64,000 nucleotides of DNA from a phage. The stretch is from assembly GCA_019385495.1 (NCBI GenBank), contig GCA_019385495.1_4102.1; one strand, 5' to 3'. The notes beneath the pieces are model-generated. The model was given only the letters and a program-made list of their open reading frames with translations, was not told where the DNA came from and ran no database searches. Shown in pieces: positions 3,317-43,266 of this stretch. Made by a program: the position numbers and the translations under genes. How positions within the stretch are numbered: the first letter of the stretch is position 1; every line of letters begins with the position of its first letter.

Positions 3317-3726
3317 AATTGTATTGCTTAACTAATATGTACTGTCAAGGTGTCCAAGCTGGTATTCAAGCATTCCATGCTGGTGTTAAACTAATTAAAG
3401 AATATGAAGGTACTGCTTTCAGTACTATTATTGATGAATGGTACTATGAACACGAAACTATTGTAGTACTAAATGCTGGTGGACATGATAAATTAAATTA
3501 TTATTATAACAACCTTAGCAAACAGGGGGAAGTTCCGTTTGCCAAATTCAATGAAGCTGGGTTGAATGATGCTATTACCTGTGTAGCAGTACTGTGTACG
3601 TCTGAAATGATTGAAGACATGGCTGTTATGCGTATGAATCTTCCTGCTGGTGATCAACTAATGCAAGTAAAATATGGTGCATTGTTTGACACACTAAAAG
3701 CAATCAGTACAATGAGGACTATTTGA
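3307..3726 (+). CDS. hypothetical protein
   Basis: ORF. Confidence 0.4.
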   Translation: MEMKLYCLTNMYCQGVQAGIQAFHAGVKLIKEYEGTAFSTIIDEWYYEHETIVVLNAGGHDKLNYYYNNLSKQGEVPFAKFNEAGLNDAITCVAVLCTSEMIEDMAVMRMNLPAGDQLMQVKYGALFDTLKAISTMRTI

Positions 3727-7970: not shown

Positions 7971-7998
7971 TGGACATTTTAAATCTTAGTGATATAAT
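7971..7998 (+). promoter_or_regulatory. promoter: TGGACAT box plus extended -10 TGATATAAT
   Basis: TGGACAT 7971-7977, TGaTATAAT 7990-7998, about 35 nt upstream of ATG 8033. Confidence 0.45.
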
Positions 7999-11118: not shown

Positions 11119-11369
11119 CATTTATGATTGTTGGATTTCTATCAATATTAGTATTATTTTTTATAACAGTAATGTTTGTTATTGATGATAATGACATTTC
11201 TCAACGAAACTATGAAGTGCGTTTTTCTGCACAAAATAATAAGTACTATATTGTAAACTGTATACACCGTAGTGAGAAAAGGGTAACAAGTAGATTTGGA
11301 TTTACCATTTATTATAAAGACCGAGTAGAAGCTGACATGATTTGTCAGAAGCTTAATACTGTAGAATAA
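11115..11369 (+). CDS. small membrane protein
   Basis: N-terminal hydrophobic helix, ATGA overlap. Confidence 0.4.
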   Translation: MTFMIVGFLSILVLFFITVMFVIDDNDISQRNYEVRFSAQNNKYYIVNCIHRSEKRVTSRFGFTIYYKDRVEADMICQKLNTVE

Positions 11370-11374
11370 AAAAA

Positions 11375-11396
11375 GGAGCCACAAGGCTCCTTTTTT
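11375..11396. terminator. bidirectional intrinsic terminator between convergent genes
   Basis: GGAGCC-acaa-GGCTCC with A-run 5' and T-run 3'. Confidence 0.65.
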
Positions 11397-15835: not shown

Positions 15836-17275
15836 ATGAAAAAATATACAATTGACACAAACGTACTACTATCTGACCCTAATGCATCTATTGCTTTTGA
15901 TGGTGCTGCAATCATTCTACCATTTACAGTACTGGAAGAATTGGATTCAATTAAGAGTCGTAATGTAGATGTTTCACGCGATGCTCGTGTTGCTATTCGT
16001 AACATTGAAGCAATTATTGCAGATGCATCACATGATGAGATTAGTAGTACTGGTGTTAATATTGCTGATGTTCATACCAATATGAATCCTGATAGCAAAT
16101 TGTTTGTTATTACAAACGAAGAAGCTGAAGCACTAATTCGTACTAAAGGTTCAGAAGAGAAAGTTCAAACCCTTCTCAAAAGCACAGTACCTGATGATAA
16201 AATCATTCTGGTAGCTTTAGCAACAGAATCAGTACTGGTAACTCGTGATATCAACATGCGTATCAAAGCACTAAGTTATGGTGTCGAGGTACAAGATTAT
16301 CGCCATGATATTGTTATTGGTGATAGTGATTTGATTCACATTGGTCAACACCATTTGGAAATCAATTTTTGGGAAGTATATAGCAACTTAACCAATACTA
16401 ATATTCAATCCGAACAAGTTGGTCGTCGTTTGTATCATTACATTTCCAAAAGCTTGATTGAGCATTTGCTCCCACAAAATCTATGCATCGGGGATTATCT
16501 ATATGATGATGCAGACGTATTATTTGTGTACGAAGGTCAATCAGCAATTGAGGAAGATGATGGAACACTAACACCAGAAGATATTTTGGTATTCCAAGAT
16601 ATTGGACAATCAGTAGCTTTACGTGCTAAAGTATGGGATATTAAAGCAAAGAATATCCAACAAGCACTCGCCATCAACAGTATTCTCGATCCTGATGTAC
16701 ATCTAACAGTACTGCTAGGTTCTGCTGGTACTGGTAAAACACTAATTACGATTGCGACTGCATTAGAATTAGTACTGGAAAAACGTAAATACGACCGAAT
16801 CATCTTCTCTAAAACTCAAGACTCACAGTTTGAAGATATTGGTTTCTTGCCAGGTTCAGAAGCAGAAAAAGTGATTCCATTCTGTGGAGCCGCAATTGAC
16901 GCGTTAGAGTTTCTTCATAAAGATGATGCTAACCCTCAAGGTAGTATTGAAGAGATTATGAAACGTAATGTTATTCAATTTAAAGCACTAAACTTTGTAC
17001 GTGGACGTTCATTCACCAACACTATTCTAGTAGTTGATGAATTCCAAAACATTACACCTGCACAAGCCAAAACAATCTTGACACGAGCAGGATTAAACTG
17101 TAAAGTAGTAATTATGGGTAACTTGAGTCAGATTGACAGTAAGTTTATTAGTCCTGTTAACAGTGGTTTGACATATGTAACTGAGAAGTTTAAAGATTGG
17201 GCAGGTTGTCGTGTCATCGAACTTGAAGGTGTTGTTCGCTCACCACTAGCTGAATTTGCTGAAGAAAATATGTAA
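15836..17275 (+). CDS. phoH: PhoH-like ATPase with N-terminal PIN domain
   Basis: Walker A LLGSAGTGKT; 479 aa architecture typical of PIN-PhoH. Confidence 0.85.
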   Translation: MKKYTIDTNVLLSDPNASIAFDGAAIILPFTVLEELDSIKSRNVDVSRDARVAIRNIEAIIADASHDEISSTGVNIADVHTNMNPDSKLFVITNEEAEALIRTKGSEEKVQTLLKSTVPDDKIILVALATESVLVTRDINMRIKALSYGVEVQDYRHDIVIGDSDLIHIGQHHLEINFWEVYSNLTNTNIQSEQVGRRLYHYISKSLIEHLLPQNLCIGDYLYDDADVLFVYEGQSAIEEDDGTLTPEDILVFQDIGQSVALRAKVWDIKAKNIQQALAINSILDPDVHLTVLLGSAGTGKTLITIATALELVLEKRKYDRIIFSKTQDSQFEDIGFLPGSEAEKVIPFCGAAIDALEFLHKDDANPQGSIEEIMKRNVIQFKALNFVRGRSFTNTILVVDEFQNITPAQAKTILTRAGLNCKVVIMGNLSQIDSKFISPVNSGLTYVTEKFKDWAGCRVIELEGVVRSPLAEFAEENM

Positions 17276-17278
17276 TAT

Positions 17279-17312
17279 TGTATGGGACATAATGTCCCAT
17301 ACATGATATAAT
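17279..17312 (+). promoter_or_regulatory. promoter with 25 bp perfect palindrome (candidate operator) over the -35 region
   Basis: TGTATGGGACAT-A-ATGTCCCATACA (17279-17303) then TGaTATAAT (17304-17312). Confidence 0.5.
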
Positions 17313-17343: not shown

Positions 17344-17532
17344 ATGGCTAAACAACCTAAGAAAAAAGAACCAGTAGCAAAAGTTAAGAAAGAGAAAGTT
17401 ATTCAATCTAAAGAACAACGTATGTACGAACAACGTAAGAGTGAAACCCTATCCGGTCTACAAGCTCTACGCAAACAAGGTGTACTAACTCGTGCACAGT
17501 ACCGTGAACTAGTAGCTCAGAAAGGTTTTTGA
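17344..17532 (+). CDS. small basic protein (62 aa)
   Basis: RBS AAGGAGAT; K/R-rich. Confidence 0.45.
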   Translation: MAKQPKKKEPVAKVKKEKVIQSKEQRMYEQRKSETLSGLQALRKQGVLTRAQYRELVAQKGF

Positions 17533-17636
17533 TTCATTTGAAGACATATTGTGGAGTTCTTAATAAATACTTTTATAAGAATAATAATACTTTTTATTAA
17601 ATTAAAAAGAACTCCATGTGTTATTTCAGTTTTTCG

Positions 17637-17662
17637 TCCCTGTCTTTTGGCAGGGATTTTTT
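17637..17662 (+). terminator. intrinsic terminator
   Basis: TCCCTG-tcttttgg-CAGGGA followed by TTTTTT. Confidence 0.65.
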
Positions 17663-17758
17663 ATATCTATATCTTGACAAAAGGAACAAATCATGAGAAC
17701 ATGTATTAAAGGAAGAATGACTTTCCATTAGGTTATTTTAACTTAAAGGAGATTTCAT

Positions 17759-31664: not shown

Positions 31665-31670
31665 ATTTAA

Positions 31671-31709
31671 AGCTCGTCTATTGACGGGCTTTTCTTTTAT
31701 GTGTATAAT
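31671..31709 (+). promoter_or_regulatory. terminator hairpin overlapping a sigma70-type promoter
   Basis: AGCTCGTC-tatt-GACGGGCT plus T-run; TTGACG (31681-31686), 17 nt, TATAAT (31704-31709). Confidence 0.55.
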
Positions 31710-31731: not shown

Positions 31732-32298
31732 ATGGTCAAATCTTTATTACCGCCACCAAAACGTCACAAAATCAAAGAAATGAAAGAACAACGTACATTA
31801 AAGATGTACATCAATTTAGTTAAGTTACTGTGTAAAAGTCCATCGCTCAAAGCAGAGTTTAAAACTGATGATGACCGCAAAGCACTAATTGAGATGAAGT
31901 ATATGCTCAGTAAAATGTCCTTTTACAAATTTGTAAAAGAATACGCATCTGACCCATTTAGTCCTCGTTGGAGAGCCAAACCAAGAGAGTATTTTTACGG
32001 TGGTTCATATACGGATCTCATTCAAGACACAGTGATGGGAGTTGAATTTGAAATCGATTATGAGCCGAATGGTGTGGAAAGCTGGCCGATTGAGAAACGT
32101 TTACCAAGTGAAGAAGAAATTTATGTTTATGCAAGAAAACTTTCAAATTTCAGTTCAAGAATTACTCTAGGCAATTTAGATTCATTTATTATTTTCTATA
32201 CACGTGTTGGTGTAGATAAAATGGTAACTAAACTCAATGAACTTTCATTACAACAAAAACAGATTAATGCATACAAAGACATTACTGATTTATACTAA
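31732..32298 (+). CDS. hypothetical protein, tandem paralog 1
   Basis: Shared D-R/K..Y-K/M-LSK motif with the next two genes. Confidence 0.45.
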   Translation: MVKSLLPPPKRHKIKEMKEQRTLKMYINLVKLLCKSPSLKAEFKTDDDRKALIEMKYMLSKMSFYKFVKEYASDPFSPRWRAKPREYFYGGSYTDLIQDTVMGVEFEIDYEPNGVESWPIEKRLPSEEEIYVYARKLSNFSSRITLGNLDSFIIFYTRVGVDKMVTKLNELSLQQKQINAYKDITDLY

Positions 32299-39497: not shown

Positions 39498-39526
39498 TTG
39501 ACATAGAAAAAGTAATTATGTATAAT
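39498..39526 (+). promoter_or_regulatory. consensus sigma70 promoter
   Basis: TTGACA (39498-39503), 17 nt, TATAAT (39521-39526). Confidence 0.7.
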
Positions 39527-39527
39527 C

Positions 39528-39558
39528 AGAGAACTTCATATGGAGTTCTCTTTTTTTA
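39528..39558 (+). terminator. intrinsic terminator immediately downstream of the promoter -10
   Basis: AGAGAACT-tcatatgg-AGTTCTCT followed by TTTTTTT. Confidence 0.6.
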
Positions 39559-39570
39559 TAAGGTGATAAA

Positions 39571-39990
39571 ATGTTAAATGAACGTATTAAAAATGCACTA
39601 CATGTATTGAACCAAGAAGTAAATTCTATTGATAAAAGTACTGACCGTTATAAAGTAATGCATGAAATCAAACAAGAATTGGAATCTATTAATAAGGGAG
39701 AATGGTGGTATCTTCAGCCCGAATATCAAACTCGTGAATTAAACGATGTTGAAAAAGAAATTGTCAAATTCATCACTACTCGTTACTGTGATACATCAGA
39801 GAATGAGGTATCAGCGAACTTCAATCTTACTAAATTGGAAGTCGAAGAAAAATTCAATTTTGATTGGCTTGATTGGATTGAAATGGTCATGGAACTAGAA
39901 GAAAAATTCAATGTTGAAGTTGATGAAAAGTTCGAGAATAATGAAACGAAGCTGTATGAACTAGTAGAACATATTCAAAAAATGTTGTAA
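39571..39990 (+). CDS. hypothetical acidic protein
   Basis: RBS AAGGTGA; E/D-rich. Confidence 0.45.
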   Translation: MLNERIKNALHVLNQEVNSIDKSTDRYKVMHEIKQELESINKGEWWYLQPEYQTRELNDVEKEIVKFITTRYCDTSENEVSANFNLTKLEVEEKFNFDWLDWIEMVMELEEKFNVEVDEKFENNETKLYELVEHIQKML

Positions 39991-41748: not shown

Positions 41749-42147
41749 ATGCTTAAAGAATTAGATTTTTCAAACTTAGAAATTATCAGTGCTGTAAAAA
41801 ACATTTCCGATATGGGAGATGAGAAAGCAGTTCTTGTTACTATTACTTTTGTAAAAGAAAAAGATAGCTATAGCTATTTAACTGGCATTGAAGAACTAAT
41901 TCATAAAACCAATCTTGAGAATGATGGTAAACTCATCAAGCTTCAGGCTTCCTATACGCAAAAAACGTCAAATTTTATAGACCTAAATAATGTAGTCAAG
42001 GTGGTATACAATCATCCTGAACACACATATAGGAATACGACAAGAAATGAAAATGTTGCTAACGATTCGAATATTATCGAAGATGTTGAATTCATAAACA
42101 CAATTTTTGATCGTTGTTCTAAGGATTTAAAAAAAGTATACATGTAA
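41749..42147 (+). CDS. hypothetical protein
   Basis: First ATG after upstream stop; ORF-track start 41671 overlaps the upstream gene. Confidence 0.4.
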   Translation: MLKELDFSNLEIISAVKNISDMGDEKAVLVTITFVKEKDSYSYLTGIEELIHKTNLENDGKLIKLQASYTQKTSNFIDLNNVVKVVYNHPEHTYRNTTRNENVANDSNIIEDVEFINTIFDRCSKDLKKVYM

Positions 42148-42176
42148 TGGGACATTATATGTTCCAATGATATAAT
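42148..42176 (+). promoter_or_regulatory. promoter with imperfect palindrome TGGGACAT-tat-ATGTTCCA and extended -10
   Basis: Palindrome 42148-42166; TGaTATAAT 42168-42176. Confidence 0.5.
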
Positions 42177-42183
42177 GTATATA

Positions 42184-42699
42184 GAAAATGACAACGGACA
42201 TTGAAAAATGGACACTGAGAACCTACTTCTCTTGAAAATGTAAAGGATAGATGAGCTTTACCGTTGTAGCGAACAGCAGAAGAAACCTGTTAGAGTACTG
42301 GCATTCAAACAAACACGATGTAAGACCACGAATCACGGCGACACGGCTGTATAAAGAACTCCGATAAGCATACAGAGAGTTCCTAGATAGATGTATAAGG
42401 TTCGCACCTTACCAGATTTGCTAAGGGAGTTTAAGAATAGCGGACGCAATTTTACAAGAAAGTTGCGTCCAAAATTTGAGAACAGGTACTTACTTTGATC
42501 GAATAGAGTTAGTACTGAGTGCTGTTGATGAAAAGACCAGCGACCGTTGCATATGACTGCGATAGAGAGAAACCGAGCAACCCGCTTTCGCTCTCTAAAT
42601 TTTGGTACAAGAAAGATCCGTCCAAAATTTGAGAAATTCGCAATTCGATAATATCCGATGCCATCATCGTCAAGAGAGACTTAATTGTCTCTTTTTTAT
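42184..42699 (+). ncRNA. candidate structured non-coding RNA (about 0.5 kb, unknown class)
   Basis: No credible ORF; GC visibly higher than flanks; own promoter and terminator; several GC-rich hairpins and a 30-nt direct repeat. Confidence 0.3.
42673..42699 (+). terminator. intrinsic terminator
   Basis: AGAGAC-ttaatt-GTCTCT followed by TTTTTTATT. Confidence 0.6.
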
Positions 42700-42837
42700 T
42701 ACCTTCATTCCCCTGCGGGGGGATGTAATAGTCCTCAACAAATCCCGTCAAGTTTTTAAAGTACATTATCATTTTCAGAAGGAACAAGTTTACGAAGTAA
42801 ACGCAGTGACTTCTTGAGTTACGAGAGAACGAAGTGA

Positions 42838-43266
42838 ATGAGTAACACAACGAAAATATCCGATAAATCCGAATTAACACAAATGTTATTCAAAGAATAT
42901 TTTGAGTTTCAGATAAAAGACGAACATCAATTACCACAGCAATATTTGAAAAGAATTAAAGATCCGTCAGTAATTACTAAAGAAACTAATTTTTATAATA
43001 GTATTTTGGATTTCGTTAAATCAGTTCATACAACAAGACCTATTGTAGTTTTGTTTTTTGATAAATCTATTCCTTTAGTAGTTCCTGAAAATGTATTTTT
43101 TATTTCAGAAACTGATTTAAATAATCAAAGTACTGTAAGTAGATTAAGAAATTGCTTACTTGTAGTATGTGATTCTTCTTTGTATAATAACAGAATACTA
43201 TGGGATAGAAGTAAACGCAATGCAGTTTCTGAAATGAATCCTGAAATTACCTTTATTATTAACTAA
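42838..43266 (+). CDS. hypothetical protein
   Basis: ORF. Confidence 0.45.
   Translation: MSNTTKISDKSELTQMLFKEYFEFQIKDEHQLPQQYLKRIKDPSVITKETNFYNSILDFVKSVHTTRPIVVLFFDKSIPLVVPENVFFISETDLNNQSTVSRLRNCLLVVCDSSLYNNRILWDRSKRNAVSEMNPEITFIIN

Follow-up and report, generated by a model that had tools for sequence, protein, structure and literature searches.

The GGGACA box is the upstream element, at the -35 position, of a second, phage-specific class of promoters in an Asteriusvirus (121Q-like) jumbo coliphage. We refer to this class as class M. Its members join the box to TG at -15/-14 and a TATAAT-like hexamer, the arrangement of a sigma-70 extended -10. More than 80% of genes in this phage group have no known function, and the class would place some 30 transcription units, among them those of replication genes, tRNAs and the late sigma, in one regulatory tier.

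The window, the whole stretch of 64,000 nucleotides that was analysed, is Asteriusvirus DNA. It is 96–99.5% identical to the jumbo coliphages 121Q, PBECO4, G17, CRJP21 and phAPEC6. The 121Q genome matches the first 25 kb of the window from 206,332 on, with an overall identity of 96%, and genome-wide tests were run on the complete 121Q genome (348,532 bp). We found no transcription map of 121Q-like jumbo phages in the literature. Promoter analysis is absent from the RaK2, phAPEC6, fEgEco12 and ph0011 papers, we found none for any Asteriusvirus, and literature queries with the motif strings returned unrelated papers only.

Class M promoters in the window and in 121Q

The most conspicuous class M site lies behind the phoH-like gene (15836–17275, + strand), which is taken from the list of open reading frames, carries a PhoH-like annotation in 121Q, G17 and others, and has its stop codon at 17273–17275. 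As the earlier note had described, a perfect 25 bp palindrome, TGTATGGGACAT-A-ATGTCCCATACA (12-1-12; 17279–17303, + strand), begins 3 nt past this stop. Its left arm holds the GGGACA box (17284–17289, + strand), which a spacer of 17 separates from the -10 hexamer of the extended -10 element TGATATAAT (17304–17312, + strand; TG at 17304, TATAAT at 17307–17312). The palindrome had been placed 3 nt upstream of TGaTATAAT; it directly adjoins the TG at 17304, and the 3 nt are the distance to TATAAT. The promoter serves a gene for a 62-amino-acid basic protein of unknown function (phrog_24119; 17344–17532, + strand). The short transcription unit is closed by an intrinsic terminator found in the terminator scan, with a 9-bp stem and a T-run (17636–17667, + strand). 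The annotation of G17 has a terminator at the place equivalent to 17636 and no promoter at the palindrome site.

The box recurs on the + strand at the three further places that had been reported (42148, 53881 and 7971), each time with a spacer of 16 and TG before TATAAT. The promoter at 7971–7998, (t)TGGACA-N16-TATAAT, lies upstream of a ClpP-like protease gene (8033), and that at 53881–53908, aaaaatagtGGGACAaa-N-TGATATAAT with the box GGGACA, lies upstream of a NUDIX gene (53981). The promoter at 42149–42176, GGGACA-N16-TATAAT, has about 660 nt behind it in which no + strand open reading frame is convincing, and an Rfam search of 42000–43000 gave no match. Three more + strand sites had been missed: GAGACG-N16-TATAAT with TG at 267–294, corresponding to 121Q 206598; GGGACA-N17-TATAAT with TG at 2516–2544, within a phosphatase reading frame (2045–2803); and the class M-like GGGAAA-N16-TATAAT with TGc at 47932–47959. 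By contrast, the canonical sigma-70-type promoters to which the box had been compared, TTGACG-N17-TATAAT at 31681–31709 and TTGACA-N17-TATAAT at 39498–39526 (both + strand), are real and have no TG.

Chance recurrence was rejected on the enrichment of the composite motif in the window together with the pattern counts in 121Q. GGACA-N13/14-TGNTATAAT matched the window five times, always on the + strand, which is the coding strand, against 0.01 expected, and none of 100 shuffles of the window reached five. The box was present at 5 of the 9 + strand copies of TGATATAAT. The 8-mer TGGGACAT, proposed earlier as the consensus, did not hold up: on its own it was not enriched in the window (5 copies versus 2.06 expected, with 7 of 100 shuffles reaching 5), and the consensus is instead (t)GGGACA(a).

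The complete 121Q genome was searched with a loose pattern: [ACGT]RRAC[AG], a spacer of 16 or 17, TG, and a -10 with at most one mismatch. It returned 32 matches on the + strand and 8 on the - strand, compared to about 5 ± 2.6 in simulated random sequence. By our own reading of the annotation, a gene start or tRNA follows within 170 nt at about 22 of the 32 sites. About 28–32 sites follow the pattern a-tract, tGGGACAa, N12, TG(a/c)TATAAT. For the 28 sites whose spacer is 16 the logo reads aaaaaaa.tgGGACAAa....aa.tt.gTGaTATAATg, and the upstream context at all copies of TGNTATAAT in 121Q is a recurrent aaaaa(t)ag(t)-GGGACA/GAGACA/TGGACA/GGAACA-A. The A-tract lies at -43 to -37. The box is degenerate, with the core RRACR, and its first three positions are consistently purines rather than random.

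Two features of 121Q bear out the earlier claim that the box replaces the TTGACA -35 and is tied to an extended -10. First, the most frequent spacer of box promoters was 16 (20 of 23), that of TTGACA promoters 17 (48 of 79; Fisher p 1.4e-6), and it stayed at 17 among TTGACA promoters that carry TG (difference from the box, p 3.4e-5). Second, TG was present at 20 of 27 promoters with an exact GGGACA, GAGACA or TGGACA, versus 16 of 79 with an exact TTGACA (Fisher p 8e-7).

The two kinds of promoter also occupy different parts of the genome. TTGACN promoters cluster at 50–160 kb, a region of many tiny genes, whereas class M sites lie at 0–50, 60–75, 190–280 and 320–348 kb and are largely separate from the set of exact TTGACA promoters of the small-gene region (n = 79). 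Behind class M promoters of 121Q are ssb (with two tandem promoters), primase, exonuclease, topoisomerase II, tRNA clusters, the ClpP-like protease and NUDIX, and the site at 121Q 321900 precedes the gp55-like late sigma gene 591. An ATAAATA late motif stands upstream of most structural genes of 121Q. The T4 late motif TATAAATA was rejected as the late motif of 121Q, being rare there (8 and 9 copies), with ATAAATA in its stead. 121Q thus has three promoter classes (TTGACA, class M and ATAAATA) and two phage sigma-like genes, 167 and 591. The earlier note had proposed that the box defines a temporal gene class; the gene set and the genome distribution fit a separate class, while its timing, like the start sites, we infer. 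In the grammar we propose, an A-tract, tGGGACAa, 12–13 nt and TG(a/c)TATAAT would together drive genes of the middle type, that is, replication, nucleotide metabolism, tRNAs and the late sigma.

The same geometry in CBB, GAP32 and other phages

The class M of Asteriusvirus belongs to a kind of promoter that had earlier been predicted in CBB and GAP32. For those phages, three classes have been predicted (Buttimer et al. 2017, PMC5259590): RpoD-like promoters, promoters that pair a classic -10 with a divergent -35 (TGAAACG), and late promoters with the motif ATAAATA. The second of these, 'Promoter 1' or the 'divergent RpoD-like' class, was predicted with MEME and assigned no reader; in Table S6 its CBB sites take the form TGAAACG/TGGAACG-N13-TG[GC]TATAAT, with one of them (Porf_244) preceding the CBB gp55-like gene, and CBB has a sigma-70-like gene in its presumed early region (PMC5259590). 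The geometry of the divergent class is identical to that of class M: a 7-mer TGRRACR, N13 and TGnTATAAT. CBB/GAP32 and 121Q also have in common the replication and nucleotide-metabolism genes served, a site before the gp55-like sigma gene, the layout in three classes and an early sigma-70-family gene. Consistent with membership, TTGACA promoters, ATAAATA late promoters and a sigma-70-family gene are all present in 121Q. The two differ in the consensus of the box, which is tGGGACA in Asteriusvirus and TGAAACG in CBB. Class M is homologous to the CBB class, and we observed the class, its geometry and its distribution directly.

The geometry was also found in other phages, with a box that varies among them. 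In RaK2, the box TGAACAA or cTGAACA lies upstream of rnh, ssb, primase and others. In Yersinia phage fHe-Yen9-03, TGGAATG-N13-TGGTATAAT stands upstream of primase and is annotated there as -35/-10 signals. The replication region of JNE01, a distant Asteriusvirus, has TGGGACA, TGAGACA, TGGAACG, CTGAACG, TTAGACA and CTGGACA, again with the core RRACR. Xanthomonas phage XaC1 has TGAAAC[AG]-N13-T[TCA]C-TATACT at seven sites, all of them on the + strand and none on the - strand. PA5oct, on the other hand, has TTGACA with TGCTATAAT upstream of primase, and the PA5oct paper reports TTGAC/TATAATA promoters only. Class M offers a compact promoter grammar for annotating the RaK2/CBB/121Q/XaC1 clade.

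Candidate readers of the box

A phage-encoded sigma-70-family protein is the most likely reader of the box, since box type seems to track the helix of the phage sigma and not the host, and since PA5oct uses TTGACA. We rate the chance that this protein reads the box, as the middle tier of a cascade, as about even. In 121Q the candidate is gene 167, which lies outside the window. Its product has Pfam Sigma70 regions 2, 3 and 4, aligns to residues 373–578 of E. coli sigma-70 and matches RpoD and SigA in the PDB. A strong TTGACA promoter with TG lies upstream of it at 121Q 84483, suggesting that it is an early gene. Orthologues of this sigma occur in every genus where the class M geometry was found; no PA5oct-like record was among the sigma matches listed.

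The correspondence between helix and box has three parts. First, the helix aligned to sigma-70 region 4.2 reads RSS[ILV]HRKYS[ED]A in four alleles from Asteriusvirus whose overall identity is no more than 56–73%. Second, it reads VRGTLHYKFSTA in RaK2, and Asteriusvirus and RaK2 differ in both helix and box. Third, it is alike in CBB and XaC1, SK[AP]TLSRRYN[DE], and these two phages share the box TGAAACR despite unrelated hosts; XaC1 was examined as a prediction of the helix-box match, and the prediction held. The box being degenerate (core RRACR), this covariation rests on few lineages, and the -10 sequence showed no clear correlation with sigma residues.

Two features of the phage sigma speak against it as the reader. 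Residues with which sigma-70 reads the -10 and TG are replaced in gene 167 (W433/W434 by S/S, Q437 by M, T440 by Y, H455 by Y and E458 by V); across the phage sigmas W433/W434 are S, T or A, and Q437 is M in Asteriusvirus. The region 4 helix-turn-helix of gene 167 carries an insertion of 8–10 amino acids, which makes the alignment of the recognition helix uncertain; against PDB sequences only region 4.1 aligned, with RpoS, and the recognition helix was not placed. The neighbours of the sigma gene and other genes with regulator-like names showed no DNA-binding domain, encoding instead a DksA-like zinc finger, a ferritin-like DUF5856 and HPF/RaiA.

In the mechanism we favour, RNA polymerase would bind the -10 half of a class M promoter as an extended -10, and the box, one base nearer the -10 than a normal -35, would most likely be read by the region-4-like helix of gene 167. 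The cascade would then run from host sigma-70 at TTGACA to the phage sigma at class M and to the gp55-like sigma at ATAAATA late promoters. With a sigma-type reader likely, the box would be a variant of the -35 element and not a site of the classical activator or repressor kind. Hence, of the earlier idea of a phage-encoded transcription factor, a phage-encoded reader stands as the best reading, while a sigma factor is likelier than an activator or repressor. Class M would also give a conserved, unstudied phage sigma-70-family protein a concrete target sequence. As a counterpoint, the -10 in the enterobacterial phages is the exact host extended -10 consensus, which host sigma-70 should be able to use unaided.

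Class M promoters could indeed be ordinary extended -10 promoters used by host sigma-70 alone, with a weak -35 (GACA kept, TT lost) and an A-tract, involving neither a phage factor nor a temporal class. We hold this reading to be unlikely, but it is the alternative we take most seriously. TGnTATAAT is a perfect sigma-70 extended -10. Four of the six bases of GGGACA agree with TTGACA, its spacing is an allowed one, and in a generic scan the palindrome site scores 10 of 12; the A-tract (-43 to -37) looks like a proximal UP subsite. The box is degenerate, and Turkey5 and A4 have TTGACA at the orthologous promoter downstream of phoH, indicating that the two boxes can replace each other. However, the register of the box is 1 bp shorter than that of TTGACA, even when compared to TTGACA promoters with TG (p 3e-5), and the first three box positions are consistently purines. 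The box consensus also varies by genus (GGGACA, TGAACA, TGAAACG, TGGAATG) among phages of enterobacterial hosts, in which, to our knowledge, sigma-70 region 4.2 is the same. XaC1 shares the CBB box in another host and with a non-consensus -10: TATACT without the usual TG, suggesting that the -10 is not simply the host consensus. Lastly, PA5oct, with no sigma among the matches listed, uses TTGACA.

The middle promoters of T4 have a similar architecture. They combine a sigma-70 -10 with a MotA box, (a/t)(a/t)(a/t)TGCTTtA, whose centre is at -30, and AsiA brings about sigma appropriation. As in class M, a box near -30 replaces the -35, the -10 is excellent and often has TG, and the genes served include replication genes, tRNAs and the late sigma. 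A corresponding arrangement in 121Q, in which host sigma-70 reads the extended -10 and a phage DNA-binding protein sits on the box at about -31, with a co-factor that may disable region 4 like MotA/AsiA, strikes us as improbable. Such appropriation would fit the shared architecture (a perfect sigma-70 -10 with TG, a box near -30 and the same kinds of genes) and the distant T4 kinship of these phages, in which gp17-, gp20-, gp23-, gp41-, gp43- and gp55-like genes are annotated. Against it, tblastn of T4 MotA and AsiA versus the whole 121Q genome gave a best E of 0.078, at an open reading frame (31732–32298) without Pfam support. Remote homologues could escape such a search; 121Q has a full sigma-70-family protein instead. 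The box tGGGACAa does not resemble the MotA box TGCTTtA, no DNA-binding candidate was found beside the sigma gene, and the -10 of XaC1 departs from the sigma-70 consensus. The reading frame at 31732–32298 was rejected as AsiA-like, its tblastn match being weak and Pfam negative.

Phage-encoded sigma factors with promoters of their own offer a parallel to the reader we favour. SPO1 gp28 is a phage-encoded sigma-70-family factor of this kind. Others are gp47 of Salmonella phage 7-11 (GTAAtg-N16-aCTA) and gp36 of phiEco32 (tAATGTAtA) (PMC8948821). As proposed here for class M, in these systems an early or middle sigma steers the host core to promoters in two parts, and the spacer is 16 nt if the sigma possesses region 4 (PMC8948821). 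Temporal control of the cascade type is common to them and to our proposal. Unlike these cases, the -10 of class M in the enterobacterial phages cannot be told from the host extended -10, and its reader is a candidate identified by comparison.

There is also a likeness to ECF (group 4) sigma factors, whose -35 elements are GGAAC and TGAAAC (E. coli sigma-E, B. subtilis sigma-W). The AAC motif is present, with a 16-nt spacer, in TGAAACG (CBB, XaC1) and TGGAACG/GGAACA (JNE01, 121Q), and the phage helix R-S-S-I-H-R resembles the R-S-R-I-F-R of the sigma-E helix, a likeness that serves as a lead only. Unlike ECF sigmas, the phage sigma includes a region 3, its best alignments are to sigmas of groups 1 and 2, and no ECF-type region 4 match was found for it in Pfam or among PDB sequences. 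We tentatively suggest, with a little less confidence than we place in a phage sigma as reader, that a three-sigma cascade runs through the 121Q/RaK2/CBB/XaC1 clade. In it, a middle sigma with a region 4 insertion would read an ECF-like RRACR box (GGGACA, TGAAAC) one base nearer the -10 and pair it with a housekeeping-type extended -10. If so, either holoenzyme, host or phage, could use class M promoters, and across genera the recognition helix and the specificity of the box would have evolved together.

The hairpin behind phoH is conserved, its sequence is not

The palindrome at 17279–17303 is the top short-range inverted repeat in the window, and as RNA it folds at -18.7 kcal/mol (z -3.2). 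It is exceptional among class M sites: about 30 of the approximately 31 in 121Q are single half-sites and only one is palindromic, and a partial dyad at 42148 is not retained in 121Q.

What follows the phoH stop differs among related phages in a telling way. The window and 121Q have GGGACAT-A-ATGTCCC, ph0011 has GGGACA-ATA-TGTCCC and UE-S1 has GGGAC-GTACT-GTCCC. Turkey3 and TH47 have GGGAC-ATTC-GTCCC, which is one base shorter and in which one arm change gives a G-U pair. In ph0011, UE-S1 and Turkey3/TH47 the arms are thus retained around a centre of 3, 4 or 5 nt. Turkey5 (GCGTCCA...TGGACGC) and A4 (TGTGTTCA...TGAACACA) have unrelated inverted repeats around the -10. EJP2 has GGGGAGT...ACTCCCC directly after the stop, with a TGAGACA-N13-TGATATAAT promoter about 250 nt downstream. 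The hairpins of all compared phages fold at -12 to -19 kcal/mol, with z of -3.1 to -3.9 except in EJP2, whose hairpin does not differ clearly from shuffled sequences (z -0.9). What is conserved after phoH is therefore a hairpin, not its sequence. Retention of the hairpin while its sequence and exact position vary points to an RNA 3' structure and not to a protein operator.

These comparisons bear on the possibility that a phage repressor or autoregulator, such as the small basic protein encoded downstream, uses the 25-bp palindrome as its operator and binds it as a dimer, with the half-sites as weaker operators. We regard this as very improbable. The perfect dyad does cover the -35 and spacer of a promoter, and the next gene does encode a small basic protein. 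Yet only one palindrome occurs among about 31 sites, the distance between its arms shifts by 1 bp in Turkey3/TH47, and unrelated hairpins replace it in Turkey5, A4 and EJP2 while the small protein remains 87–94% identical. This degree of identity holds in all compared phages, including those without the palindrome; being conserved whatever the hairpin, the 62-amino-acid protein is not the hairpin's sequence-specific partner. No DNA-binding domain was found in it, only a weak SHOCT-like match. The earlier view of the palindrome as an operator and a general element for a dimer is thus not borne out, given the single half-sites in 121Q and the variable centre or replaced hairpin in relatives.

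To judge from its sequence, the palindrome is most probably the class M box plus a complementary arm, a local fusion with the predicted 3' hairpin of phoH and not a general operator. We infer the role of the hairpin: lying within the promoter spacer, it may stabilise the 3' end of read-through phoH RNA or terminate transcription weakly. No U-run follows it, the tail being UGAUAUAAU, and the scan does not call a terminator there, so that it would be a weak terminator at best. A sole role as intrinsic terminator was rejected on the same ground. Intrinsic terminators and 3' stabilising hairpins that overlap the next promoter are comparable, in that a stable hairpin comes right after the stop and is packed between -35 and -10; the hairpin at 17279 differs from intrinsic terminators in having no U-run. 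A conspicuous palindrome can thus arise where a 3' hairpin and a promoter box are packed together, and need not be an operator. The overlapping arrangement recurs in 121Q at TTGACT promoters: other promoters there have a hairpin between -35 and -10, for example GGGTTGACTTCGGTCAGCCCTTTT-TGCTATAAT, which is present in three copies and a near-copy.

A frequent 8-bp palindrome

The 8-bp palindrome CAGTACTG was found 34 times in the window compared to 0.71 copies expected, with examples at 3587, 16707, 19173, 41483 and 63199. The genome of the related Asteriusvirus phage 121Q carries 194 copies, ~57-fold above base composition, at a median spacing of 1.2 kb. Since copies fall in every one of the three codon phases as well as in intergenic sequence and are flanked by TTT...AAA, CAGTACTG appears to be a signal at the level of the DNA, superimposed on the coding sequence.

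Class M promoters without an obvious gene

Several promoters of class M, the predicted phage class with a GGGACA box and an extended -10, face no evident gene. Downstream of the class M promoter at window 42149-42176, ~660 nt (42177-42837) contain no convincing + strand ORF, and the 121Q annotation of the equivalent region holds only one gene, of 51 aa and on the - strand. Two additional GGACA copies lie shortly past this promoter, at ~42200 and ~42213. The stretch 42177-42837 could be a non-coding RNA; a search for Rfam families in it returned no match. Two class M promoters in 121Q likewise face no gene (192743-192810, on sequence piece L005, and 326601-327340, on L008). The promoter at 192743 is followed immediately by a hairpin and T-run, and its predicted transcript would be very short. 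The promoter at 326601 first faces a gap, beyond which its direction is antisense to genes 595 and 596.

Hairpins at canonical promoters and between convergent genes

In 121Q, a terminator-like hairpin bearing the -35, GGGTTGAC-TTCG-GTCAGCCC-TTTT, is fused directly to TGCTATAAT, and this module occurs in three copies and one near-copy (98719, 109300, 110582 and 112750, on L003 and L004). The canonical promoter at window 31681 (region 31669-31709) has a similar layout. At a second canonical promoter, TTGACA-N17-TATAAT at window 39498-39526, a hairpin and T-run at ~39529-39557 follow immediately and precede a gene start at 39571. This layout would be either attenuator-like or a case in which the promoter is overlapped by the terminator of the tail-fibre gene before it. 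Elsewhere, a perfect inverted repeat, AAAAAAGGAGCC / GGCTCCTTTTTT, with A- and T-runs flanking both sides, sits between convergent genes at window 11369-11396 and looks like a bidirectional terminator.

Sigma gene, weakly AsiA-like ORF and late motifs

The phage sigma-70-family gene (121Q gene 167, L003:39267-40232; orthologues L019, L020 and L023) is strongly divergent among otherwise near-identical phages. BF17 and the window are 99.7% identical around phoH, yet the sigmas of BF17 and 121Q share only 58.7% identity, a pattern that suggests allele exchange or fast evolution. The best tblastn match to AsiA, the T4 co-factor of middle promoters, was a 188-aa ORF at window 31732-32298 (phrog_18641), though the similarity, confined to the N-terminal half of AsiA, was non-significant (30% identity over 56 aa, E 0.078), and a Pfam domain search of the ORF returned nothing. 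As to late motifs (121Q genome; window 25581), the T4 motif TATAAATA is scarce in 121Q, with 8 and 9 copies compared to ~56 expected by our own base-composition estimate. Most structural genes in 121Q have ATAAATA, the late motif of this phage, upstream.
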